Shown here: one piece after another, positions 6,694 to 58,593 of the stretch
Layout of the letters: every line of letters begins with the position of its first letter
Position numbering within the stretch: position 1 is the first letter of the stretch
Assembly: GCA_016932965.1 (NCBI GenBank)
Contig: JAFGBW010000039.1
Coordinates: forward strand, 2,140 to 66,139
From: Candidatus Auribacterota bacterium
GTDB taxonomy: Bacteria > Auribacterota > JAFGBW01
Direction: 5' to 3'
Length of the DNA: 64,000 nucleotides
Notes under the pieces: generated by a model
What the model was told of the DNA's origin: nothing
Databases searched by the model: none
What the model saw: the letters and a program-made list of their open reading frames with translations, nothing else
Program-made: the position numbers and the translations under genes

Positions 6694-7548
6694 TTGTCTG
6701 CTCCTTATTTTGAACTAAATGAATCACAGGATAATGAATTATTCTTACCATTGCCGGGGCCTTTCTTTAATATCCTTTTCTGGTATAACAAAATATCATG
6801 GAAGTTGGCTAGCAGAGAGTTTAATCGTCTGATGAAGAAGAAAATCTTTGAAAACATCTATCATCTGTTATTGAAGACCTACGGTCCTCAGGGTTGGTGG
6901 CCTTTGATACAATGCCGTCAAAAAAACGCTGTTAAGAACGGCCCCCTCCGGGGGTATCATGAAAATGATTATACCTATCCCAAAAACAGCCTTCAGCAGT
7001 TTGAAATAGCTATAGGAGCTGTAGCGACACAGAACACCAGCTGGATTCAGGCGGAGAAAGCCATGATGAATCTTCATGATTTGAATCTATTGACCCCGAA
7101 TGAATTATCTCGAATAGATTTGGCTCGACTGGGCAGCGCACTCAAGCCCGCAGGATATTTCAATCAAAAAGCCAAAAAAATGAAGATCCTCGCGGAGTTC
7201 TGGCTGAAGTTAGCCCGCAGAGTTCCTGAAAGAAATGAATGGCTGAAACTGTGGGGAATCGGTCCTGAAACGGCTGATTCTATTTTATTGTATGCTTTTC
7301 GGAAACCCGTGTTTGTTGTGGACGCATACACGAAGAGACTATTCAGCAGGCTGCGAATTTTTCGCGAAAGTCTTTCTTACGATGACGTGCAGAACATCTT
7401 TGAAAACAATCTGGAATCTTCCTATAAGATTTATCAGGAATACCATGCTCTGATCGTGGAACATGCTAAAAGACACTGTAAAAAGAAACCGGTATGCCAG
7501 GGATGTGTCTTAAAGAGATATTGCCGTCCCATCTGTCACGCAGAATAA
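6694..7548 (+). CDS. HhH-GPD base-excision glycosylase, endonuclease III-like with C-terminal [4Fe-4S] loop
   Basis: LKLWGIGPETADSILLYAFRKPVFVVDAYTKRLFSRL is an HhH-GPD motif. The C-terminus CKKKPVCQGCVLKRYCRPIC is a Cx6Cx2Cx5C cluster loop. The true start may be the internal Met near 6832. Confidence 0.6.
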   Translation: MSAPYFELNESQDNELFLPLPGPFFNILFWYNKISWKLASREFNRLMKKKIFENIYHLLLKTYGPQGWWPLIQCRQKNAVKNGPLRGYHENDYTYPKNSLQQFEIAIGAVATQNTSWIQAEKAMMNLHDLNLLTPNELSRIDLARLGSALKPAGYFNQKAKKMKILAEFWLKLARRVPERNEWLKLWGIGPETADSILLYAFRKPVFVVDAYTKRLFSRLRIFRESLSYDDVQNIFENNLESSYKIYQEYHALIVEHAKRHCKKKPVCQGCVLKRYCRPICHAE

Positions 7549-30621: not shown

Positions 30622-30720
30622 CGTTTTTATTCAAAAGAATTGAGGATCGAGTAAAGAGAATGGAGTATGATGAATGAAGACTTTGTGATTCCTGAAAAAA
30701 ATATTTTTTTCTTTATTTTG

Positions 30721-30758
30721 TTCTCAATTTTCAATTTTCAATTCTCAATTCTTAATTC
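30721..30758. repeat. Tandem heptamer array TTCTCAAT-TTTCAAT-TTTCAAT-TCTCAAT-TCTTAAT (TYTYAAT x5)
   Basis: Read directly. The same heptamer family recurs at 37935-37945 (inverted), 43988-44009, 52425-52455 (inverted), 52524-52540 and 58561-58580. Confidence 0.7.
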
Positions 30759-31236
30759 TGGTATTATTCCTTGGTTTTTTTCGCCCTTTGACTGCATCCA
30801 TCATCTGGATGACCTGTTCAGGGAAAGAGGCTGAAAGTAAGGCGGTTCGTAATGTTTTCCGGCTTAGTATCTTGGAAATGGTGGAAAGAATATCCAGATA
30901 TTCATTGGCGGAACAAACAGGGCCGATCACCAGGAAAACAAAATAGACCAGACCTCCGTCTGATGATTCCCATTCAATTCCCTCTTTGAACCGGGCAAAG
31001 AGAATGCCTGTTTTGTTTACGGCATCTGTCCTTCCATGCGGGACAGCGAGGCCGTCACCCAATCCTGTAGAGGTTTTCATTTCTCTGGTTAGAACAGTAT
31101 TGATAACCAGATCACCGATGTTCTCGGGAAGAGAACGGCAATAATGCCGTGTGAGGCATTCGAGCACTTCCCATTTCGTGCCTTTTCGTGACTCCAGAAG
31201 GATTCCCTGATCAATGAGATATTCACTTAACTTCAT
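30745..31236 (-). CDS. ptsN: PTS EIIA(Ntr)-type nitrogen regulatory protein PtsN-like
   Basis: EIIA-2 domain with GLAVPHGRTD phospho-His motif, about 160 aa. The ORF track extends to 31278; start chosen at MKLSEYL. Confidence 0.65.
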   Translation of the reverse strand: MKLSEYLIDQGILLESRKGTKWEVLECLTRHYCRSLPENIGDLVINTVLTREMKTSTGLGDGLAVPHGRTDAVNKTGILFARFKEGIEWESSDGGLVYFVFLVIGPVCSANEYLDILSTISKILSRKTLRTALLSASFPEQVIQMMDAVKGRKKPRNNTRIKN

Positions 31237-31454
31237 TTTTTTTCCATAAGTCGTTATGTGAAGGACAATCCCCCTCATCTAATAAAGAATATAAGGATGT
31301 CTATCAGAGATTAAATGATTTTAGAGAAGATGGTCAATCTAGAAGTAGCTTAAACCATCTCCTTTTCATCACAAAGGAGTTGACGCGTGGAAGCAGCAAC
31401 TATCTATCATTTACTAAAATAGGTAGATCACCGTTAAAGTTTTTTGAGTTGTGC

Positions 31455-31512
31455 AATTTGACAGATACATGAGTATCAAAAATTAGTATTTCACCACGGA
31501 GAACACGGAGGG
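31455..31512. repeat. Intergenic repeat family 1, copy A (TTTGACAGATAC-N30-TTCACCACGGAGAACACGGAGGG)
   Basis: Aligns with 36765-36822 (copy B1): identical TTTGACAGATAC, and 21/23 identical in the CACCACG[A/G]AGAACACG[A/G]AGGG block. The -35-like TTGACA is at 31458-31463. Confidence 0.65.
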
Positions 31513-31616
31513 AATTAGAATAAAATTGAATTGAAAGTTTTGAGTGATGAATTGGAATGTGGAATGTCATCCTTTGAAAGATCTGTGCTTCCTGCTGTTT
31601 GTTGAAAAAATGGGAA

Positions 31617-32021
31617 TTAACGTTTGGAGAACTGGAAGCGTTTTCTGGCTCCGGCCTGACCGTATTTTTTTCTTTCCTTCATTCGCTGATCCCGGCTCAG
31701 CAAAGAAGCTGATTTCAAGGGAGTCCTCATTTTTTCATCGAATTTACATATGGCTCTTGAAATCCCAAGTCTCAAGGCTTCAGCTTGACCGGATTTTCCG
31801 CCACCGGAAAGAGTGACATTAAAATCAAAACGTTTTTCAGATTTGGAGATGGTCAAGGGAAAAGAAATGACTTTTTTGAGTGATAAGCTCGGAAAATAGG
31901 TCTCCAGGGAAACACCATTGATGTTGAATTTTCCTGAACCAAGCGTCATCCTGACTCTTGCGCTAGCCTTTTTTCTTCGGCCGATGGTCACTACTTCGTT
32001 ATTGGATTTAGACTCTCCCAC
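31617..32021 (-). CDS. rpsI: 30S ribosomal protein S9
   Basis: GRRKKASARVRM...KKYGQAGARKRFQFSKR matches the S9 N- and C-terminal signatures. Confidence 0.9.
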   Translation of the reverse strand: MGESKSNNEVVTIGRRKKASARVRMTLGSGKFNINGVSLETYFPSLSLKKVISFPLTISKSEKRFDFNVTLSGGGKSGQAEALRLGISRAICKFDEKMRTPLKSASLLSRDQRMKERKKYGQAGARKRFQFSKR

Positions 32022-32046
32022 GTTTTGCCTCCGCTATTGGTTTACT

Positions 32047-32475
32047 TTAATGTGTTGCCTTTTTTGGCTGCTGCGCCTGATGAGGATGCGCTTCCCCTTC
32101 ATATGCCCGCAAACGGCTGAACATTCTTTTGCCGATTTTAGTCTTGGGCAACATCCTTTGTACCGCATGTTCCAGAATTCGTCCCGGGTGCTTTTCCAGC
32201 ATTTGTTCGTATGTAACTTTTTTTAGACCCCCAATATAACCAGAATGATGGTGGTACGTTTTCGTTTCCTTTTTATGACCGGTTATCCTGACCTTTTTGC
32301 AATTCAAGACAATCACGTGATCCCCTCCGTCAACATGCGGAGTATACTGAACCTTATTTTTTCCGATCAGAAGTCTTGCCACTTTGCAGGCAAGCCTCCC
32401 CATGACCTGGTCTGTCGCATCAAGGAAATGCCATTTCCGTATGATTTCTTCTTTTTTCAATTCATATGTTTTCAT
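32047..32475 (-). CDS. rplM: 50S ribosomal protein L13
   Basis: MKTYELKKEEIIRKWHFLDATDQVMGRLACKVARLL is the L13 N-terminus. Conserved rplM-rpsI order. Confidence 0.9.
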   Translation of the reverse strand: MKTYELKKEEIIRKWHFLDATDQVMGRLACKVARLLIGKNKVQYTPHVDGGDHVIVLNCKKVRITGHKKETKTYHHHSGYIGGLKKVTYEQMLEKHPGRILEHAVQRMLPKTKIGKRMFSRLRAYEGEAHPHQAQQPKKATH

Positions 32476-32656
32476 TGCATGATCTCCAAAAACAAAAAGA
32501 GGAAACCTTTTATCTTATCCTCGGTATCTAGTCAACAGGAAAATTCTGTATCTATTATCGTCGGAAAAAGGCTTCAGATTTCCGAATGATTTATCCATGG
32601 CGGATGAACAAGAGACGCTGGATTTCGCGCCCCGTTTTCAGGCCTTATCCAAGTTC

Positions 32657-33526
32657 TCAGGAGCTGGAAGAGTGTTTGAAATTTCTTCGTTCTTCTGAAA
32701 CACGCGATAAAAAGCGCTGGATCGCCGCAGGATTTTTCCCGGAAAGCAATTGCCGGAAGACTCGGAACTGTTTTTCAAAAACAGCCGTGGTTTTGAGGAT
32801 TTCCCGGCGGTTTTCCTGGAAAATGCCTGTCCATAGTTCGGCGGAGCTGGCCGCGATTCGCGTCATGTCTTTGAAAGAGCCTGCGGCGATATTCAGGAGA
32901 TCCGGCAGCCGGTTTTTTTGTTTTAAAAGGGAGTCCATGAGAACAAAAGACACGACGTGCGGGAGATGTGAGATCCATGCGACGGAAGTGTCGTGTCCTT
33001 CAGGAGTCATGATGAAGACCTTGGCCCCGAGTTGTTTCCAGAATTTTTCAGCCCTTGGCAATGCCCAATCCGGGGTGTTTTTTTCCGGGGTCAGGATACA
33101 CGGGGCCCCCCGATAAAGACCTGGTACAAAATTATTAAAACCAAATTTTTCCGTTCCTGTCATAGGATGGCAACCCAGGAAACCCGCCTGCTTTCCCACA
33201 ATGCGGCTGCATGCCGAAACCACGGGTTTTTTGACACTCCCCACGTCCATGACCAGTGACCGGGACGAGAGGAAAGGCAGGATTTTTTTTAACAGTTGAG
33301 GGATGAGACTGACCGGAGTGCACAGGATCACGATTTCCGCGTCTTTTACAGCCTTCTCAATGCAACGGGTGGCAACATGCGCCAGTTTCAACCGGATCAA
33401 ATCGGGTATGACTTCCTCCCGTCTCACCAGGCCGCAGACTTCTTTTGCCAGTTTATAACGGATGAGGGTGTGCCCCAGGGAGGCCCCCATGACGCCCATG
33501 CCGCATATCGTAACTTTATTGAACAT
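32657..33526 (-). CDS. tyrA: Prephenate/arogenate dehydrogenase
   Basis: VTICGMGVMGASLGHTL is a Rossmann GxGxxG. PDH-like C-terminal dimerisation region. Start taken at MFNKV. Confidence 0.75.
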   Translation of the reverse strand: MFNKVTICGMGVMGASLGHTLIRYKLAKEVCGLVRREEVIPDLIRLKLAHVATRCIEKAVKDAEIVILCTPVSLIPQLLKKILPFLSSRSLVMDVGSVKKPVVSACSRIVGKQAGFLGCHPMTGTEKFGFNNFVPGLYRGAPCILTPEKNTPDWALPRAEKFWKQLGAKVFIMTPEGHDTSVAWISHLPHVVSFVLMDSLLKQKNRLPDLLNIAAGSFKDMTRIAASSAELWTGIFQENRREILKTTAVFEKQFRVFRQLLSGKNPAAIQRFLSRVSEERRNFKHSSSS

Positions 33527-33652
33527 TTTGATTTTTTCTTTTAGATTTGATTTTTGCATGAAAAATGGTCAATTGGCGATAGAAATTTTTAACTTTTATT
33601 TTTTAGCATAATGTCTTAAATATGTCCGGAACAAAATAGATAGGGAAGACGC

Positions 33653-34684
33653 ATGATCATAGGTTTGACAGGCCGTAACGGTTCAGGAAAAAGTACGGTG
33701 GCTGAATTTTTGATTCATCGGGGTTTTCAATATTATTCATTATCGGATATCATCAGGGAAATCCTTTCAAAAGAAGGAAAGGAATTTTCCCGGGAGAATC
33801 TGATTGAAACCGGTAACAGTCTTCGTTCCACCATGGGGGCGGCCGTTCTTGCGGAGAAGACGGTTGAAAAACTGATGCCGGATCGAAATTATGTCATTGA
33901 TTCCATCCGGAATCCGTCAGAAGTGGAGCGGCTGAGAAAGGTAAAAGGTTTTAAACTCATCAGGGTGGAAGCTCCCACCCGGGTACGGTTTGAACGCTGT
34001 AAATCACGCAACCGAGAGAAGGCGGATCAAGATCTGGACTCTTTCAAAAAGCTCGAGAAGAAGGAGCTGAAAAGTCCTGATCCTGTTTCCCAGCAGCTGG
34101 AGAAGACCGGAAAAATGGCGGATTATATCCTGAGAAACAGCGGTTCGCTGGAGACTCTTCATGAGCAGGTAATCGAAATCTTGAAAGAGGTGACAAAAAA
34201 AATTTTCAGGCCGGGCTGGGACGAGTATTTCATGAATATCGCGAGAGTGGTGGCCCAGCGTTCCAATTGTGTGAAAAGGCATGTGGCTGCGGTCATCGTT
34301 CGTGATAACCGGATCATATCTACGGGCTACAACGGCACTCCCAGAGGGATCAAAAACTGCAATGAGGGAGGATGTCCCCGGTGCAACAGTTTCGGGGTAT
34401 CGGGGGAAAATCTGGGAGAATGCCTCTGTTCCCATGCGGAGGAAAATGCCATCACACAGGCAGCTTATCATGGGGTGTCCATCAGGGATGCAACATTATA
34501 TACTACCTTTTCACCCTGTCTCATATGCACTAAAATGATCATCAATTCCGGTATTCGGGAAGTGGTCTATGACTCCCGTTATTCCTTGAATGCCCTGGAG
34601 CTTCAGCTTTTGAAAGAAGCGGGGATATCCGTCAGAGCGCTCAGAGAGCATCGGGATTTCCCCGATCCGTCTGCCGGCAGATGA
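33653..34684 (+). CDS. Fusion protein: N-terminal P-loop nucleotide-kinase-like domain + C-terminal dCMP/dCTP deaminase (zinc) domain (AvcD/DcdV-like architecture)
   Basis: Walker A GLTGRNGSGKST (nt ~33662-33697). Walker B-like NYVIDSIRN. Deaminase zinc motifs CSHAEENAI -X24- PCLICTKMI (nt ~34420-34540), matching the (H/C)AE-X24-36-PC-X2-C dCMP deaminase signature. Confidence 0.7.
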   Translation: MIIGLTGRNGSGKSTVAEFLIHRGFQYYSLSDIIREILSKEGKEFSRENLIETGNSLRSTMGAAVLAEKTVEKLMPDRNYVIDSIRNPSEVERLRKVKGFKLIRVEAPTRVRFERCKSRNREKADQDLDSFKKLEKKELKSPDPVSQQLEKTGKMADYILRNSGSLETLHEQVIEILKEVTKKIFRPGWDEYFMNIARVVAQRSNCVKRHVAAVIVRDNRIISTGYNGTPRGIKNCNEGGCPRCNSFGVSGENLGECLCSHAEENAITQAAYHGVSIRDATLYTTFSPCLICTKMIINSGIREVVYDSRYSLNALELQLLKEAGISVRALREHRDFPDPSAGR

Positions 34685-34687
34685 ACG

Positions 34688-36733
34688 ATGATGAATCCTG
34701 ATTCTTTTGTTTCATTGATTGAAAAAGGGGAAATCTTCATACAGGATGGTTTCCTGCAGGAATTTCTTTCGTTGACCAGGGAACATCAGGTCTTATTTTT
34801 AAGGGAATTGATTCGTATTTCGGAACGAGACATCATCCCGGGCAGTTTCAGGACCTACGATTTGAGGATTGAAGCAGCCCGTCTTCCCAATCATGTCGTT
34901 TTTTATCTGGGGTTAAAAGCAGGGCCGATATTTAGAGAGATGACTCTGGGTCCGGACGGAAGATCGCTCATGATCGGAGTAGGCAGAGCGTTTGAAAAGG
35001 CCAGGCCTGGAAGTCATCGGATTCAACGCTGCTATATGAACGCATTGGCCCTGACCGGAGCCCGGGTCGTGGACCTGGGGGTCACAACCACCCCGGATAT
35101 TTATTTCGGACTCGCGTACCTGCTTCATCAGGGGCTCCACGTGGCGGTCAACGTGTCGGCCAGCCATAATCCGAAAAAAGACACCGGACTGAAACATTGT
35201 ATCCGGGACAGGGAAGGGTTCATTTACTCCATTTCCTCTGATCAGATGTCCCGGCTCAAAAATCATGTTCTGCCCGGGAAAAAAGAAAAAATACAGAGTG
35301 ATGCCTTTCTTTTAGACACGGATTTTCATTCGCTGGAAGTTTTTTCCGTTGATCATCAGATGCTTCCTGATGAAAATACCCTGAGCCGGTTTCATCATGC
35401 TTTCATTGTCGCCTTCGGACTCCTGGGGAAAAAAGCCATGAATGAAATGACCGTCCGTTATCAGGGTGATTTTTACCGGGTTCTTTCTTCACTGATTCCC
35501 CCGGAAAAACCGGATCAGTTGATCCCCGGATTGTTGAAATGGTTTGAAAAGCCGTCCGGGGAAATTCGGAAATGGCTGGAGTTGTCTCCGGATGTTTCTT
35601 TTCCCGGTGCCTGCGGGGAGAAGCCGTTGAAGGACATGGTTGTGGTTTTAGATCACGGCAGGGGGACGGCTTTCAGAACCATGGAAATTTATTCTGTGCT
35701 GGGCGCCCATGTCATCTGCGTGGATGAGGAAAGGGGGTATAATCCGTTGGAGTCGGGAAACCAGATGCACTGGAGAAAAGCGGTTCTGAAAGCTGCCGGA
35801 GATTTTCCCGGCAGGGAAGTCATCGGCCTGGCCCATGATGAAGATGGAGACCGTCTCGCGGTCATGCGTTCTGACGGGATCAACGTGGAAGGAGACCGGC
35901 TGCTCGTCATTTCCTGCAGGCAGATGGAACCCTCGGAAAAAAAACCGATTGTGATCACAGAAGTCAAATCGAGACCCGAGACAAGGAAGGCCCTGGAGGA
36001 TTCCGGCGTCGTTCCTGTGATTGCACCGACAGGGTTCGCCTTCATCAAAGAGACGGCCATTATACTGGAGAAGAAATTCAGGGAATTCCATGCCTGTTCG
36101 GAAAGCCCGGCGATCCTGAGACTTCACGGAAAGGAAATCAACCTGACAACAAACCTGCCTGTGCAGATGTGGGCGGAACTCAGCGGGCATTTCGGATTGA
36201 GCCAGGGATTGTCCTGGTTTTTTGATGATGCAACCCTCATGGCTGTGGATCTGCTTTTGGGTCTTGAAAAAAAAATTCAATCCGGAACCAGGCCCGGACG
36301 GGCGCTCATTTCTCTGGATGAAAGTTTTCCAAGGCATCCGAGTTCAGGTGAATTGAATATATTTCTCCGGACAACAGATCCGGAGTATGTTCCGACTTCC
36401 GAAGAAAAAGAGGCGTTTGTAGCCTTGTTTGCAGAACTTTTTTCCGCTGATCCGGCAGTGGATCATCTTGATCGTACGGATGGGGTTCAGATTTTTTTTA
36501 AAGACAGTCAGGGGGAATACGGCGGATGGATTCTGATTAGAAAATCCAACAATGAGGACAAGCTGGTTGTGGTGTCGTCAGCCCCCACAAAAGAACAACT
36601 GCATCATGTGGAACAATGCTTTCTGGAAAAAGCGCGTGCTCTTTCTCTTTCTCCTATTTCCGGGCTTGTGCTGACCCAAGAAGAAGAACAGGGAACAACC
36701 CGGAAAGCGGAACCGTATTTTTTGAATCGCTAA
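34688..36733 (+). CDS. alpha-D-phosphohexomutase superfamily protein (PGM/PMM-like, divergent, ~90-aa N-terminal extension)
   Basis: Active-site loop VNVSASHNPKKDTGLK (TASHNP-type phosphoserine), GVTTTPDIYF, Mg loop LAHDEDGDRLAV (DxDxDR). The start codon is 4 bp after the stop of the kinase-deaminase gene. Confidence 0.65.
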   Translation: MMNPDSFVSLIEKGEIFIQDGFLQEFLSLTREHQVLFLRELIRISERDIIPGSFRTYDLRIEAARLPNHVVFYLGLKAGPIFREMTLGPDGRSLMIGVGRAFEKARPGSHRIQRCYMNALALTGARVVDLGVTTTPDIYFGLAYLLHQGLHVAVNVSASHNPKKDTGLKHCIRDREGFIYSISSDQMSRLKNHVLPGKKEKIQSDAFLLDTDFHSLEVFSVDHQMLPDENTLSRFHHAFIVAFGLLGKKAMNEMTVRYQGDFYRVLSSLIPPEKPDQLIPGLLKWFEKPSGEIRKWLELSPDVSFPGACGEKPLKDMVVVLDHGRGTAFRTMEIYSVLGAHVICVDEERGYNPLESGNQMHWRKAVLKAAGDFPGREVIGLAHDEDGDRLAVMRSDGINVEGDRLLVISCRQMEPSEKKPIVITEVKSRPETRKALEDSGVVPVIAPTGFAFIKETAIILEKKFREFHACSESPAILRLHGKEINLTTNLPVQMWAELSGHFGLSQGLSWFFDDATLMAVDLLLGLEKKIQSGTRPGRALISLDESFPRHPSSGELNIFLRTTDPEYVPTSEEKEAFVALFAELFSADPAVDHLDRTDGVQIFFKDSQGEYGGWILIRKSNNEDKLVVVSSAPTKEQLHHVEQCFLEKARALSLSPISGLVLTQEEEQGTTRKAEPYFLNR

Positions 36734-36764
36734 TCTTCGGTCACCACAGGTTTTGGACTCTTAA

Positions 36765-36934
36765 AGTTTGACAGATACGGAAGCATCTTAAAAATAATTA
36801 TCACCACGAAGAACACGAGGGGTAAAAAGAGTTATGAGTGTTGAGTTTTTTTAAGTTTTGAGTTTAAATAAAATTATATTAGTAAACTCATTACTAAAAA
36901 TTTTTTCAAATGTACTTCGTGTTCTTCGTGGTGA
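36765..36934. repeat. Intergenic repeat family 1, copy B: TTTGACAGATAC + 18-bp perfect inverted repeat arms TCACCACGAAGAACACGA (36801-36818) / TCGTGTTCTTCGTGGTGA (36917-36934) with 98-bp AT-rich spacer
   Basis: Read directly. The arms are exact reverse complements. The left half aligns to copy A at 31455-31512. MITE-like or structured-RNA-like. Confidence 0.7.
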
Positions 36935-37048
36935 AATAAAAATATTTAAATATAAAATAAATATGAATGTTATACCATATTCAGTGGCTCATATAAAGAG
37001 GCTATGAGCTGATAATAATTATAAGCTACATAAAAATAATTAAAGAAA

Positions 37049-37081
37049 TTGTTTGACAGAGGAACTATCATATAATATAAT
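37049..37081 (+). promoter_or_regulatory. Near-consensus sigma70-type promoter: TTGACA (37053-37058) -17- TATAAC, with a perfect TATAAT overlapping at 37071-37076
   Basis: Read directly. It lies about 55 bp upstream of the GGAGGA ribosome-binding site and ATG of the twin-HTH gene. A third TTTGACAGA occurrence (also at 31458 and 36768). Confidence 0.55.
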
Positions 37082-37135
37082 CTATTTCTAACATAATGAA
37101 ATGAGTTTTTTGCAATAAGAGATTTGGAGGAAACA

Positions 37136-37885
37136 ATGACAAGGATCATGACAATTGGCAGTCGGGCAATCCGTGAAAGGGGACAATATTTTCATAATGA
37201 TGAAAATGAATTATCCAGGCCGGTCGCGCAATCAGCAGGCTCTCAACAAGACTCAGTGACAGGCGGCGGTGAGTCCATTGCTGAAAAAAAATCGTTTAGT
37301 CATCAGGAATTGATGGCCAAACAGGCTGAAGTAAGAAAAGAACTCATTAAGACCATGTTCAGGAAATATCAGGAATACCGGACCCTGCAGAAAGTGGCTT
37401 CTGATTATGGGTACACCCGTGAGCGTATCCGTCAGTATTTTGCCATAGGAAATAAACTGGGGATCATTGATTACAAGCCTTTCAACCGGCAGAACTTTCA
37501 GAGAATAAAAAATGAACTGACCAAGGATCGCCTGATCAAATATTTGAATGAAATGGGGACAATCCGCCGTATTTCCGAGGAATTGAATGTGGCAGTCAGT
37601 CATGTGAATCGCCTGATCAAATTATATAAATTGAATCTGTCCCAATTCAGGAGGAATTACCTCAAAACCGAAATATGCAAACAGTATTACACCATGGTGG
37701 AACAGCTGGGAGGCAAGCACCCATCCACTTACGATCTCTTGCTCATTAAAAACGGCCGGAATCTCTGGGCAAAAATTTCAAGGAATTGGGGAACCGTAAA
37801 AAAATTCCGGGAAGAGCAGCATATCCAGCTGGCAAGAAAATCAAGAAGAAGAAGAAAGAACAAGAATCTTCCTCCGGCTCAATGA
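37136..37885 (+). CDS. Twin helix-turn-helix protein with two sigma-70 region-4-like modules; putative transcriptional regulator
   Basis: RTLQKVASDYGYTRERIRQYFAIGNKL contains the sigma region 4.2 TRERIRQ hallmark. A second HTH is GTIRRISEELNVAVSHVNRLIKLYKL. Basic C-terminal tail. AT-rich gene. Start taken at the ATG after GGAGGA; the ORF track gives 37124. Confidence 0.5.
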   Translation: MTRIMTIGSRAIRERGQYFHNDENELSRPVAQSAGSQQDSVTGGGESIAEKKSFSHQELMAKQAEVRKELIKTMFRKYQEYRTLQKVASDYGYTRERIRQYFAIGNKLGIIDYKPFNRQNFQRIKNELTKDRLIKYLNEMGTIRRISEELNVAVSHVNRLIKLYKLNLSQFRRNYLKTEICKQYYTMVEQLGGKHPSTYDLLLIKNGRNLWAKISRNWGTVKKFREEQHIQLARKSRRRRKNKNLPPAQ

Positions 37886-38091: not shown

Positions 38092-38120
38092 TTGACAAAG
38101 TAGATATTTACAAGTATTAT
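38092..38120 (+). promoter_or_regulatory. Near-consensus sigma70-type promoter TTGACA -17- TATTAT upstream of the GWD-like gene
   Basis: TTGACA at 38092-38097, 17-nt spacer, TATTAT at 38115-38120. The start codon is at 38162. Confidence 0.5.
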
Positions 38121-38161: not shown

Positions 38162-41100
38162 ATGATAGGTCACAAGAATTTTTTTATTTGCATGATTGCC
38201 TGGTTTTTATCGACCGGATTTTTATGCCAACCGGTTCAATGTTTTTCGCAATCTGTGGATTCTTCTTTTCTGGCTCCTTCGCATTCAGCCCAAGACCTGA
38301 CCCCCATCATGGTATTAGCCGGAAAAATGCAGGGAAATCAGCCTGTTATCTGGGATGTTTCTGCAACAGGAGTGAATAAAAAAGTAATCATTGTTGTTAA
38401 GAGCAGAGAGAGAGTGCATGTTCACTGGGGTAAAAGCCGCTACGGGAATTGGGAAATTCCCCCGGAAGCCATTTGGCCGGATCACACAACAAAGATGGAT
38501 GATAAGGCGGTGCAAACAGCCTTACAGCCTGTTTCGGATAATATCCGGGTTTTTTCAGTCACTATTCCCAACTCCATGGAATTCAATGAACTGGAATTTG
38601 TGCTTTTCTATCCTGACCGTCCCCCTCACAATCAGTGGGTTAAAGACGGAAACAGGAATTATAAAATTACCGTTAAGGACGATCCTGGACTGGAAGAAAT
38701 GGCTGGTGAAACCAAGAGTTGGATTCACACCATGATAGAAGGTGAAAGAGGGGAGCATGGCCGGAGTCTGATGCATAGAAATAAATTTGTTTGCGAATTG
38801 CTTGGCAGATTTCCTCATTGCAAAGAATTTTTCAGCACCCTGGCAGTGTACATGAGATACAACCGGCTTGGAGTCCTGCCGTGGCAGAGAGGTTATAATA
38901 CGACGCCAAGAGAAATGACTGCGAGCGTTGACAGATTGAATGAGACTATTTCAAGATTGATGATCACGGATTCTAAACATTATTCGATGGTCAGATTATT
39001 GATGAGTTTTTTAACCCTTGGCGGAGAAAATGGACAGCAAATCCGCGATAATATTTTGCATATTTTACAGAATAACGGGGTCCGGGGGACTACTTTTCTG
39101 GAACAATGGCACCAGAAATTACACAACAATGCCACCCCTGATGATATTGGAATCTGTGATGCTTATCTGGCTTTTTTAAGAAGTAATGGAGATAAAGGTA
39201 CATTTTATCGGGTCTTATGGGAGGGGTATGGAATTTCCAGGGAAAAACTGGCAAGTTATGAGAGACCCATTACGGTTGAGCCTGAGTTTTACGGATATGC
39301 CAAAGATGGTTTGATCCGTGATTTTGAAGCTTATCTGGAGCTCAACAGGAAAGTCCATTCCAGGGGTGATTTATTCCGGGCAAAAGCAAATGCTGAAAAA
39401 TATGATGCGCCAGGATTGAATAAGCCGCTGTGGGATTTTTTTACTTTGAAATATCAGGTGGAGACCTCACAGGTGGAGCAAGGCTGGGTTAAATTATTGG
39501 ACAAGCTGGTTGAAGTGCGGAGAGAGCTGCGGAGACTCATTTTTGCGGGAGGCGACTGGTGGTATCTGAGGGATTTAGTATTTTTGGATTTAAGTCTGGA
39601 AGAATATTCCAGGACCATTTCTGACAAAATCTCAGAACAAGTTAACGACCAGGAAATCATGTGGGAAGCAGCTAGGAATTTAAGCCTTCAACTTGAAAAT
39701 ATTGTACTCAGTTCTGATGCAGACGATTGGGATATGCTGGAAATCAATATCATAAAAAGAGAATGGGACAAGATTCAACAAGAGCCGATTAAAGACGAAC
39801 AATGGCATTTGCATTCCAAAGCTATTCTGGACCGTTTGCAGAGAGTCATTGGAGACCGTATTCAAAAGGAGACTGAACTGCTTCAGCCCAAGGCTGAACT
39901 ATTAGGAAACCAGGTCCTTGCAGAAAAAGACAAATGGGCCATTCCTCTTTTTAGCGAAGAACTGGTCCGGGGTTCCCCTCTATTTTCTATAGCCAATATT
40001 TTGAAACCCCTGCGCAAGGCAGCCAGACAAAAAGCTCTCTTGCCTCCCTGGGATGTCATTGTGCCTGGCAGAGTTTCTGCAGAAGTGAGGAAAGCAAAAT
40101 CATTGAAAGAAATTTTGGCAGGAATACAACCGGGAGACAGGATCATTGCTGTTGTCAAAGACCTGGATGGAAGCGAAGACATTCCTCCCCAGATAGCAGG
40201 GATTATCAGCCAAAGGGAAGTGGATATCACATCGCATCTGGCTGTCAGGGCAAGGAATTTAAAAGTTCCCTTTGTTTTCATTGATTCGGAAGAAGAATTT
40301 CAGACCGTTTATCAAAATGACCGTCCTGTCAAACTTCATGTTTTTGAAGGCATGACAAAACCCTGGCAGGTTTATACAGGGGATTTAAGCATGGTCAGTA
40401 TCCCTGCCGAAATTCCTGAAATCACCATCCCTTCTGTTGATCTGACAGCAGAACCTGCCTGTCTAAAAATACAGGAATTCACAATGGATAAGGTCGGGCC
40501 AAAAGGTTCCCAGATAAAGCAATTGATGGAAGACGTGAGTGAGAAGAAAGACGTGACAATTCCTAATTCAGTTGATGTGCCGTATGGAGTTTATCAGGCA
40601 GTGCTTAAAGATAAAAACAATTTAGAAATAGCACAACAAATACAAGAGTTAATTGCAAGAGCGGACGCTGAAACTGCAAGAGATGCCGCCAAGCAGTATA
40701 TTGCGGAGATAGAGAGATTGACTAAAACATTAGTGATACCTGATGAGATTTTAAAGCCTATTTTAGATGCGATAAAACAAGAGATAGGAGAGGATAAAAT
40801 TCTGATGGTGCGTTCTTCAGCTAACGGGGAGGATCTGGAAAAATACGCCGGCGCAGGTTTATATGAATCTTATTTTAATGTTTCATTGGATAAGGTGGAG
40901 CAACATATCAAATGGGTGTGGGCTTCCAAATGGACGGAACGCGCGTACTGGAGCAGGCGCGATATGAAAATTGACCATGACCAGATCCATGTTTCAGCGC
41001 TTATTCAGGAATGTTTTCATTTTGATTATTCCTTTGTGATTCATACGGTCAATCCGGTTAACAATGATCCGGATGAAGTCATGATTGAGGTTGCCCAGGG

Positions 41101-41512
41101 GCTGGGGGAAGCCATCGTTGCCAATTATCCGGGGAGCGCCTATCGTTTCATTTATAATAAAAAAACACATGAAGTCAGGCGCATCGCCTTTGCCAGTAAA
41201 AGTCTGAAATGCATTATCAAAGACGGCCAACTGCAATTGGTTTCAGTTGACTACAGCGATGATTTCCTGGCAGGACCAAAAGAGCAATGGGAGGAAGTGA
41301 TAAGGTCTATCGGTGAAGCAGGATGTTTGATTGAAGAAAAAAGGGGAGGGAATGCCCAGGATATCGAAGGAGGGTATTTTTCCAGGTATGCAGACAAGCC
41401 GGATATCCTGGGTTTGGTCCAGACGAGGGACCAGATGATTGTAGAGATTGTAACGGAGAAGCCTGTTGGACCAGCGGCGGAACCACCGGACGCAGTTTTG
41501 ACTGCGGCATGA
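38162..41512 (+). CDS. alpha-glucan,water dikinase (GWD)-like protein: N-terminal hydrophobic export/anchor segment, CBM-like domain, large unknown middle region, phosphohistidine domain, C-terminal PEP-synthase/PPDK-type nucleotide-binding domain
   Basis: The His-domain motif DITSHLAVRARNLKVPFVF (nt ~40222-40280) resembles the plant GWD catalytic-His motif SHVSVRARN. The nucleotide-binding domain shows MVRSSANGEDLEKYAGAGLYESYFNV, VWASKWTERAYWSRRDMKIDHDQIHVSALIQE and VAQGLGEAIV (PPDK_N-like, nt ~40500-41330). The His domain precedes the ATP domain, as in GWD and unlike PEP synthase. Confidence 0.75.
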   Translation: MIGHKNFFICMIAWFLSTGFLCQPVQCFSQSVDSSFLAPSHSAQDLTPIMVLAGKMQGNQPVIWDVSATGVNKKVIIVVKSRERVHVHWGKSRYGNWEIPPEAIWPDHTTKMDDKAVQTALQPVSDNIRVFSVTIPNSMEFNELEFVLFYPDRPPHNQWVKDGNRNYKITVKDDPGLEEMAGETKSWIHTMIEGERGEHGRSLMHRNKFVCELLGRFPHCKEFFSTLAVYMRYNRLGVLPWQRGYNTTPREMTASVDRLNETISRLMITDSKHYSMVRLLMSFLTLGGENGQQIRDNILHILQNNGVRGTTFLEQWHQKLHNNATPDDIGICDAYLAFLRSNGDKGTFYRVLWEGYGISREKLASYERPITVEPEFYGYAKDGLIRDFEAYLELNRKVHSRGDLFRAKANAEKYDAPGLNKPLWDFFTLKYQVETSQVEQGWVKLLDKLVEVRRELRRLIFAGGDWWYLRDLVFLDLSLEEYSRTISDKISEQVNDQEIMWEAARNLSLQLENIVLSSDADDWDMLEINIIKREWDKIQQEPIKDEQWHLHSKAILDRLQRVIGDRIQKETELLQPKAELLGNQVLAEKDKWAIPLFSEELVRGSPLFSIANILKPLRKAARQKALLPPWDVIVPGRVSAEVRKAKSLKEILAGIQPGDRIIAVVKDLDGSEDIPPQIAGIISQREVDITSHLAVRARNLKVPFVFIDSEEEFQTVYQNDRPVKLHVFEGMTKPWQVYTGDLSMVSIPAEIPEITIPSVDLTAEPACLKIQEFTMDKVGPKGSQIKQLMEDVSEKKDVTIPNSVDVPYGVYQAVLKDKNNLEIAQQIQELIARADAETARDAAKQYIAEIERLTKTLVIPDEILKPILDAIKQEIGEDKILMVRSSANGEDLEKYAGAGLYESYFNVSLDKVEQHIKWVWASKWTERAYWSRRDMKIDHDQIHVSALIQECFHFDYSFVIHTVNPVNNDPDEVMIEVAQGLGEAIVANYPGSAYRFIYNKKTHEVRRIAFASKSLKCIIKDGQLQLVSVDYSDDFLAGPKEQWEEVIRSIGEAGCLIEEKRGGNAQDIEGGYFSRYADKPDILGLVQTRDQMIVEIVTEKPVGPAAEPPDAVLTAA

Positions 41513-43942: not shown

Positions 43943-43987
43943 GCAGGCAGGCTTAGAGTGATTTGGCTTTGATTTATTTTGTTCTTT

Positions 43988-44009
43988 TCTCAATTCTCAA
44001 TTCTTAATT
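43988..44009. repeat. Tandem heptamers TTCTCAAT-TCTCAAT-TCTTAAT
   Basis: Same family as 30721-30758. Located at the right edge of the AT-rich block. Confidence 0.65.
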
Positions 44010-44081
44010 TTTTTCTTACAATGAGCTTTAAACGAACTATAATCCGTTATACTCCCGGATATTTTTTAAAAGAAATATAAA

Positions 44082-52394: not shown

Positions 52395-52523
52395 AACTTG
52401 TCTCTACCAAAATCTAACGGTCTATTAATTAAGAATTTAAAAATTAAGATTAAAAATGAAAAATATTCATTAATAGTGTATGGAATGCAAATGGGAAAGG
52501 AATGAATGGTTACATTGTTCAAT

Positions 52524-52540
52524 GTCTTAATTCTCAATTT
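52524..52540. repeat. Heptamer copies TCTTAAT-TCTCAAT
   Basis: Same family. Inverted-orientation copies (ATTAAGA) occur at 52425-52455 in the same spacer. Confidence 0.55.
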
Positions 52541-52626
52541 TAAAATTTTATTTTTGTTCTTTTTCAATAAGCTATAACAAAACTATGTCGAAATAGAATC
52601 ACGGATTTCTTCAGATCCAAGACATG

Positions 52627-58456: not shown

Positions 58457-58560
58457 TAGCTTCGATTGGCAAAGGATAAGGATCGTTTGATGTAATTGAA
58501 CAAGTTAGAATCATGAATTGAGGATGATAATTATAACTCATTAGAGAAAGGATTTTTTTT

Positions 58561-58580
58561 AATTCTCAATTCTAAATTAT
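58561..58580. repeat. Heptamer copies AATTCTCAAT-TCTAAAT
   Basis: Same family, in the dxr-rseP spacer. Confidence 0.5.
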
Positions 58581-58593
58581 ATTATGGATAGTT

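Follow-up and report, generated by a model that had tools for sequence, protein, structure and literature searches.

A described counterpart of the element considered here is found in the genome of Geobacter metallireducens, which contains 21 pairs of 'class 2 predicted global regulator binding sites' (Aklujkar et al., 2009, BMC Microbiol 9:109; PMC2700814). A class 2 site consists of three tandem TCTCCGTS[Y] units and is paired with another on the opposite strand at a variable distance; pairs are located 3'/3' or 3'/5' of genes and are 5'/5' in 0 of 13 cases. The sites were described by BLAST alignment in this single genome, and binding by IHF/HU is the authors' guess. The same paper describes sister classes with GTTGCTYN, MTYCTGA, and CCYTC units, copies of the IS110-family element ISGme8 that adjoin class-1 pairs, and a 'vestigial unpaired site' (PMC2700814). 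Here we analyze a repeat of comparable design in 64,000 nucleotides of DNA from Candidatus Auribacterota bacterium (assembly GCA_016932965.1, contig JAFGBW010000039.1, positions 2,140 to 66,139 of the forward strand), a stretch referred to below as the window. The repeat is present there as copy A, 3' of rpsI, and copy B, 5' of a gene encoding a 253-aa protein. Both are probably local copies of a palindromic interspersed repeat, non-coding and non-autonomous, that is REP-like and resembles MITEs (transposable elements of miniature size with inverted repeats), with a foldback architecture.

Several other systems share parts of this design. Xanthomonas (GGGAATC) and Nostoc (GGGGAYT) carry intergenic tandem 7-mers of 2-26 units, with 70-75 convergent opposite-strand array pairs per Xanthomonas genome that are depleted between divergent open reading frames (ORFs) (Rehm et al., 2015; PMC4692102). 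The REP, BIME, and REPIN sequences of Enterobacteria and Pseudomonas are likewise short extragenic palindromes, often in inverted pairs with long hairpins; they lie 3' of genes or between cistrons, occur in hundreds of copies, and serve as insertion targets of the IS110 family. The cyanobacterial STRR heptamers, reportedly a subject of Mazel et al. in 1990, are grouped with the paired heptamer arrays. MITEs and foldback transposons (Correia, Nezha) are alike in their small size, their inverted termini that fold back, and the internal sequence that copies have in common within a genome, and the FB elements of Drosophila have inverted termini made of tandem short repeats.

The window contains three TCACCACGRAGAACACGRAG arms, and 0 of 100 dinucleotide shuffles yielded any arm match. 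Within these arms, the core TCACCACGRAGAACACGRAGGG is located at 31491-31512 (+ strand, no mismatches), 36801-36822 (+ strand, one mismatch), and 36913-36934 (- strand, two mismatches). The absence of arm matches in shuffles bears out the original prediction, made from the letters alone, of a repeat family with two copies. Its estimate of about 80% identity over about 60 bp stands for the gapped alignment (about 46/60, ~77%, with two small gaps), but not for the ungapped comparison of 31455-31512 with 36765-36822 (41/58). The identical TTGACA-bearing block that it had recognized in both copies was recovered as the 12-mer TTTGACAGATAC at 31457-31468 and 36767-36778. This block alone is weakly significant, given that 3 of 100 shuffles contained at least two matches at no more than one mismatch; we consider it non-random because its distance to the arm is constant (22-24 nt) in both copies. 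Weaker homology between the copies, as judged by alignment and sliding identity, extends over ~125 nt (~31430-31555 compared to ~36745-36875) and includes, for example, a common AAGTTTTGAGT.

Copy B is a complete foldback of 136 nt (36801-36936) that contains no ORF, has its arms 90 nt apart, and starts 68 nt past the stop codon of a PGM-like gene. Its inverted pair is perfect over 18 bp (36801-36818 / 36917-36934), exactly as first described. Copy A is a half-element left behind 3' of rpsI, i.e., a solo left half whose partner arm is absent. The spacers around the two copies had been called unusually long, and they are indeed the two longest of the neighbourhood: the copy A spacer measures 338 nt between rpsI (31617-32021, - strand) and a PTS-EIIA(Ntr)-like gene (30745-31278, - strand), and the copy B spacer measures 390 nt between the PGM-like gene (34688-36733, + strand) and the 253-aa gene (37124-37885, + strand), which shows a weak match to sigma-70 region 4. 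Each arm in the window carries two units. Those of copy A are all of the GGAG variant, and those of copy B are GAAG save one GAGG in the left arm (CACGAAG-AA-CACGAGG on the left, CACGAAG-AA-CACGAAG on the right). The features of the two copies are as follows.

31430-31555, + strand: stretch of copy A homologous to copy B, with TTTGACAGATAC (31457-31468), the arm, and the downstream AAGTTTTGAGT; defined by alignment and sliding identity.
31489-31512, + strand: copy A arm, a solo half TTTCACCACGGAGAACACGGAGGG, with TT and a CACCAC cap/first unit followed by CACGGAG-AA-CACGGAG-GG; exact match, none in shuffles, no partner, and no stable fold.
36767-36778, + strand: copy B TTTGACAGATAC block with a -35-like TTGACA, belonging to this genome's subfamily; absent beside the arms of other genomes.
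36801-36822, + strand: copy B left arm TCACCACGAAGAACACGAGGGG, with the 5' half of a 20-bp stem at 36801-36820.
36823-36912, no strand: copy B AT-rich loop with a small internal hairpin and GAGT/TTGAG short repeats, from sequence and folding.
36913-36936, - strand: copy B right arm TTTCACCACGAAGAACACGAAGTA, cap outward; 36915-36934 form the 3' half of the stem.

The window copies are members of a family that crosses phyla. A scan with CACCACGRAGAACACGRRG of one genome per species (185,579 species) returned at least 120 loci, and all family figures given here and below (hallmarks, the 159 arms, hairpins, and gene contexts) rest on those loci among the matches listed. Hallmarks that the pattern did not select were present in 73 of 120 loci, which have either an additional, third CACGRAG unit or, within 400 nt, a partner in inverted orientation. 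Similarly unselected were a T at position -1 in 108 and at -2 in 91 of the 159 arms, and the third unit was located at +21 to +27 in ~60% of arms. The 42 partner arms, none of them selected by the pattern, gave the consensus ttcACCACGaAGgaCACGaAGa.CACGaAG, i.e., ttcACCACGaAG-ga-CACGaAG-a.-CACGaAG. Most matches were intergenic; some high-GC ones inside genes (Micromonospora, Streptomyces) are chance matches. Judging from record titles, the species-representative genomes that carry arms with cap and heptamers number more than 70 and belong to at least 13 phyla among the matches listed, spanning Acidobacteriota, Verrucomicrobiota, Planctomycetota, Lentisphaerota, Desulfobacterota, Chloroflexota, Alpha-, Beta-, and Gammaproteobacteria, Binatota, Gemmatimonadota, Nitrospinota, Spirochaetota, and Sumerlaeota, with the window itself representing Auribacterota. 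Isolates with elements include Bacteroides finegoldii, B. ovatus, Gemmatirosa kalamazoonensis, and Anabaena cylindrica PCC 7122. No match to the consensus element was found in 5,426 genomes of E. coli or in 50,697 records of cultured phages.

Control motifs were compared in viral contigs. In IMG/VR, the motif occurred in 24 independent contexts, its mirror image in 8, and a permuted control in 1, and hallmarks were present in 19 of 40 matched viral contigs. These counts were de-replicated, since 35 of the 44 raw matches to the mirror control came from one conserved phage gene. Further copies exist well beyond this locus, contrary to the local duplication of no consequence that the original prediction had allowed for. 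Chance similarity or a one-off local duplication might still be argued from the presence of just two loci in 64 kb and from the 12-mer TTTGACAGATAC, which is marginally unexpected. Such an explanation is hardly credible, however, given the lack of arm matches in shuffles, the unselected hallmarks in dozens of unrelated genomes, and the excess over both controls in viral contexts.

Across the family, the arm is polar, with the cap (T)T(C/A)ACCAC on its outer side and, inward of it, two to four CAC-RRAG heptamers (GAAG, GGAG, AGAG, or AAAG) that are separated by 1-3 non-conserved linker bases. The consensus contains no GTAG and is not self-complementary. Among adjacent arms within 300 nt, 60 cases were convergent (caps pointing outward) and 12 were divergent, these mostly at junctions of tandem elements; the spacers between arms range from 6 to 230 nt. 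In the 50 hairpins mapped, the heptamers pair with each other and the linkers often form A.C or other mismatches. Since linkers mismatch while heptamers stay intact, it is the sequence rather than complementarity that is kept. The units of an element usually agree in variant: units 1 and 2 were concordant 116 times and discordant 14 times, the third unit behaved likewise, and the window copies conform as well. Copies within one genome are alike beyond the arms, both in the window and in Thioalkalivibrio (locus L026 of the scan), as expected if a longer unit had been copied; what different phyla have in common is confined to the arms.

In an element, two polar arms oppose each other, separated by a spacer of any sequence (6-230 nt), so that either DNA strand, or an RNA copy, can form a long imperfect hairpin. 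As conservation concerns the heptamers and not their base-pairing, the heptamers may dock a putative sequence-specific protein, such as a recombinase, transposase, or nucleoid protein, and they are probably read by such a candidate protein. Template switching or gene conversion between arms or units would keep one variant per element and could flip the element.

The elements show no preference for strand and behave symmetrically at the level of DNA. Contexts assigned by a longest-ORF heuristic place 45 arms in convergent spacers and 18 in divergent spacers, and the elements avoid the promoter-rich divergent spacers. Among solo arms between co-directional genes, 13 were sense and 12 antisense. 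For 21 hairpins flanked by co-directional genes, 44 G.U and 37 A.C oppositions were counted on the sense strand. Neither comparison reveals a strand bias, and hence there is no sign of a strand-specific (RNA) constraint. All-against-all clustering of ORFs identified no recurrent neighbour gene at the 120 loci.

One alternative, in line with the regulator binding sites named in the original prediction, is that a global DNA-binding protein (IHF/HU, or a different regulator that loops DNA or associates with the nucleoid) would use the arrays as binding platforms in cis, with bridged arms shaping topology or expression. Retention of the heptamers, but not of linkers or pairing, would be consistent with this, as would conservation of the unit across phyla and the resemblance of 8-9-bp periodic arrays with a polar cap to multi-site protein docking. 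An earlier proposal along these lines was made for the Geobacter class 2 sites (PMC2700814). The two ideas are also compatible, given that a mobile repeat can double as a binding site. Nevertheless, the elements shun regions with divergent promoters and are often situated 3' of genes or in operons, which are poor positions for transcription-factor sites, and no associated regulator gene was found at the 120 loci. Moreover, the spacer varies between 6 and 230 nt, whereas a 6-20-nt duplex cannot loop, and the presence, absence, and flipping of an element between close species (see below) are evidence against a regulatory role that is conserved at a given locus. We regard binding platforms as an unlikely primary explanation.

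We also examined folding, promoters, and RNA features of the window copies. In copy B, the 18-bp pair can be lengthened into a stem of 20 bp that includes one G.U on the + strand and encloses a 94-nt AT-rich loop. For a 161-nt region around it, the + strand gave a folding energy of -50.3 kcal/mol (z = -8.8), and the - strand a z-score of -8.0. The folding check proposed with the original prediction therefore returned a very stable structure on both strands, and the description of copy B as a hairpin-capable, MITE-like unit holds. No stable fold was obtained for copy A, with z-scores of +1.8 and +1.3 against shuffles. A sigma-70 scan of copy B gave a weak pass (TTGACA-16-AAAAAT, 10/12). Copy A has a perfect TTGACA -35 but no acceptable -10 at 16-18 nt, by consensus scan and direct reading. 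At 37053, the 253-aa gene is provided with a perfect TTGACA-17-TATAAT promoter of its own. In addition, TTTGACAGA recurs in a genuine-looking promoter at 37051; its occurrence in the repeat copies may reflect the -35 preference of this genome or local subfamily sequence. Beside arms of the other genomes in the species scan, TTTGACAGATAC was not found. No intrinsic terminator was detected in 36734-37053 or 31279-31616, the copy B hairpin being followed by AAATAAAAA with no U-tract, and without a terminator after either copy there is no unit resembling a small RNA. Searches of the window against Rfam gave no match at gathering thresholds and, at E<=10, only noise from snoRNA and miRNA models in both spacers; a tRNA/tmRNA scan of the window found none.

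It had been proposed that the copies contain promoters or are small RNA genes. The first idea fares poorly because only copy B passes the scan, and weakly, copy A lacks a usable -10, and TTTGACAGATAC does not accompany the family elsewhere; the second, because neither copy is followed by a terminator and solo arms lack an orientation bias. The promoter/small RNA reading of the window copies is weak. More broadly, the elements might act as RNA, either through a TTGACAGATAC promoter driving a small hairpin RNA, or as a hairpin in 3' or 5' untranslated regions that would stabilize the transcript, terminate it with no U-tract, or act as a sponge that captures an RNA-binding protein. Consistent with this, CACGGAGG fits the CsrA consensus CANGGANG, copy B is very stable on both strands, and the + strand, which is sense for both genes flanking copy B, keeps G.U where the - strand has A.C. 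TTGACA also lies 22-24 nt upstream of the arm in both copies of a genome that uses consensus sigma-70 promoters, the position 3' of genes recalls REP-type stabilizers of mRNA, and related paired heptamer arrays in Xanthomonas are mostly transcribed (PMC4692102). In addition to the shortcomings of the -10 elements and the lack of a U-tract or terminator, however, copy A is unfolded, solo arms have no strand preference, and the sense strand has no excess of G.U over A.C. There is likewise no covariation, as arm differences between Bacteroides orthologues reflect a flip rather than compensation, the GAAG and AGAG variants lack the GGA needed by CsrA, and Rfam has no match. An action as RNA is thus quite unlikely. 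In the window, any effect of the repeat would be no more than passive, namely that of a stable hairpin at the 3' side of read-through transcripts, and the repeat would provide neither a promoter nor a small RNA gene.

Other candidates were considered and rejected. The motifs of parS, DnaA boxes, the MraZ box, CIRCE, sigma-54 promoters, and attC do not match. For a CsrA sponge, GGA is found only in the GGAG variant. Coding of His/Glu-rich peptides was dismissed as the arms are palindromically paired and intergenic.

Compared to the known systems, the reverse complement of the Geobacter class 2 unit, [R]SACGGAGA, fits the CACGGAG/CACGAAG of the window, in a comparison of the repeat units. Of the features given by Aklujkar et al. 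(2009), opposite-strand pairing is shared by copy B, and copy A is unpaired like the vestigial site; there are three units per class 2 site as against two per arm in the window, with three in ~60% of family arms. Cross-phylum spread, concerted units, the flip, and solo halves come from the present analysis and are not described in the 2009 paper. The arrays of Rehm et al. (2015) are similar in being convergent paired heptamer arrays that are less frequent between divergent ORFs. In contrast, they are G-rich contiguous 7-mers that have been read as G-quadruplex-forming, whereas CACRRAG cannot form a G-quadruplex and its heptamers are separated by 1-3-nt linkers and preceded by an ACCAC cap.

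Unlike REPs and REPINs, the present arms lack a GTAG/CTAC tetranucleotide, are direct heptamer arrays rather than palindromes, and have no RAYT or recurrent Y1-transposase-like neighbour at the 120 loci; REPs are also lineage-specific, whereas the ACCAC cap and heptamer recur across phyla. As for MITEs, copy B has inverted termini, is small, and is non-coding, but shows no target-site duplication at its termini. The likeness to MITEs also includes a Desulfobacterales composite with 8-10-bp duplications in unrelated flanks, and the CACRRAG arms have the tandem-repeat termini of FB elements. A difference is that no autonomous partner with the same ends was found within ~4 kb of the 120 loci. Literature searches with literal arm and unit sequences returned only coincidences with PCR primers. 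The kind of element is already known, though uncharacterized; as far as the searches reach, the cross-phylum spread of the CACRRAG/ACCAC design, its concerted units, and its flip are undescribed.

Signatures of insertion were observed in other lineages. Four Desulfobacterales species (loci L005, L073, L087, and L112) contain a composite of ~190 nt with conserved outer ends (GYGGTTATCTGGGAAACTCCAGTT ... CACTTGAGCTTTCTGCATAACC) and a central heptamer hairpin within unrelated flanks; a fifth Desulfobacterales copy (L063) has a diverged left end. Around three of the composite copies, there are AT-rich direct duplications of 8-10 bp: ATTTTCAAT, AAAATTAC, and ATAAATTGAT compared to ATAAACTGAT. A second case is the gmd-fcl junction, where B. 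finegoldii and B. ovatus contain a 75-bp element and Phocaeicola massiliensis has none. The two elements are identical at 59 of 75 positions directly and at 71 of 75 once one is reverse-complemented, with collinear flanks. This higher identity in reverse complement indicates that the whole palindrome, including the loop and arm asymmetries, was flipped between species. Template switching, recombination between arms, or re-insertion can produce such a flip, and the same processes may lie behind the concerted unit variants.

Further composites and nested arrays were noted in single genomes. In Shewanella nanhaiensis (L030, 640-940 and 2200-2620), three repeats of ~200 nt end in a solo CTTCGTGTTCTCCGTGGTG arm; the repeat holds a GGCTCTACCAA...TTGGTAGAGCC hairpin and is a lineage-specific composite carrying the arm. 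Arms are internal to longer palindromes at L118, at L113, and in nested arrays of Gemmatirosa. On plasmid 2 of Gemmatirosa kalamazoonensis (L164, 1440-1640), these nested palindromes comprise an outer pair of arrays of three TTGAACCGCAGAGG around an inner pair of TTGAACCACAGAGGACACGGAGG arrays, with CGCAGAG and CACRGAG units, and on each replicon BLAST located six related places. L097, a contig labelled as an Akkermansia muciniphila metagenome-assembled genome, has a clear element of 140 nt (7055-7195) in a spacer between divergent genes. The GC content of A. muciniphila is about 56%; because this locus has 61% GC, the contig may be mis-binned.

Several observations weigh against classification as a mobile REP/MITE-like repeat. 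No target-site duplication was found directly at the arm ends of copy B or of 49 other hairpins, and the duplications that were found, in Desulfobacterales, surround a larger composite; the arm module itself may therefore be carried along as cargo and not be the unit that moves. Neither a transposase nor a RAYT-like gene was identified in ~4 kb around the 120 loci, and the crudeness of the longest-ORF heuristic weakens the context statistics. Evidence for the flip and for filled and empty sites comes from one orthologous locus. The organism's own genome was searched over the 64 kb of the window, and the databases contain no close relative: the S9 protein is 99% identical to an NCBI protein of Candidatus Aureabacteria, and the next S9 homologue is 64% identical; for an orthologous comparison, a metagenome scan gave one 1.1-kb locus, a Logan contig was 100% identical, and relatives with an S9 protein 59% identical have no arm after rpsI. 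Finally, conservation of the cap and heptamer over at least 13 phyla is atypical for lineage-specific REPs and MITEs and hints at a conserved host factor or function.

A tentative and, on present evidence, doubtful proposal is that the ACCAC-capped CACRRAG arrays may be the recognition module of a putative trans-acting system common to many bacterial phyla. Candidates would be a recombinase that binds the hairpins or arrays and inserts and flips the elements, or a conserved nucleoid or RNA-binding factor. If true, a single sequence code would underlie a REP-like system found throughout bacteria, in place of numerous selfish repeats that are each confined to a lineage.

The window also contains a second repeat family with 7-nt AATTGAR / YTCAATT units (e.g., TCAATTTTCAATTTTCAATTCTCAATTC) at 30638-30760, 43983-44012, 52427-52562, and 58494-58581. 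These arrays are intergenic, form convergent pairs at 30638-30760 and 58494-58581, and resemble the cyanobacterial STRR heptamers; AT-rich arrays similar to them adjoin CACGRAG arms in other genomes (L034, L156). In one of the relatives with an S9 protein 59% identical (L166, CCYMUM010000067.1), the spacer after rpsI (2260-2430) contains another long palindrome with tandem TAGGCTG-type heptamers in its arms, TAGGCTGTAGGCTATTAG ... CTAACAGCCTACAGTCTA; it shares the genomic position and the architecture but has a different unit. Two neighbouring genes were also noted. Positions 38162-41512 (+ strand) encode an 1116-aa protein with domains of the alpha-glucan water dikinase type (Ig_N_CWD1, GWD1_pHisD, PPDK_N), an enzyme family that is mainly plant and algal; the gene follows a PGM-like gene and a perfect sigma-70 promoter at 38092. 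Positions 33653-34684 (+ strand) encode a 343-aa fusion of a nucleotide-kinase-like P-loop domain (AAA_17/18) with a dCMP/cytidine deaminase domain.

For the window, the favoured reading as a palindromic interspersed repeat is deflationary, in that the spacers would hold a selfish or structural repeat and not a promoter or small RNA gene. For annotation, recognition of the family accounts for long 'empty' spacers, and the arrays may give rise to spurious low-complexity ORF calls in metagenome-assembled genomes. One 30-nt arm design, with the same cap and heptamer, nevertheless extends over many phyla, with Pseudomonadota, Bacteroidota, and Cyanobacteriota among them, and some viral contigs without an Rfam entry, and the searches made located one mention in the literature, by Aklujkar et al. 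(2009). If a common protein or mechanism does read these arrays, they would constitute a widespread, unstudied layer of genome structure or mobility, and culturable hosts such as Bacteroides, Geobacter, and Anabaena make this question testable.

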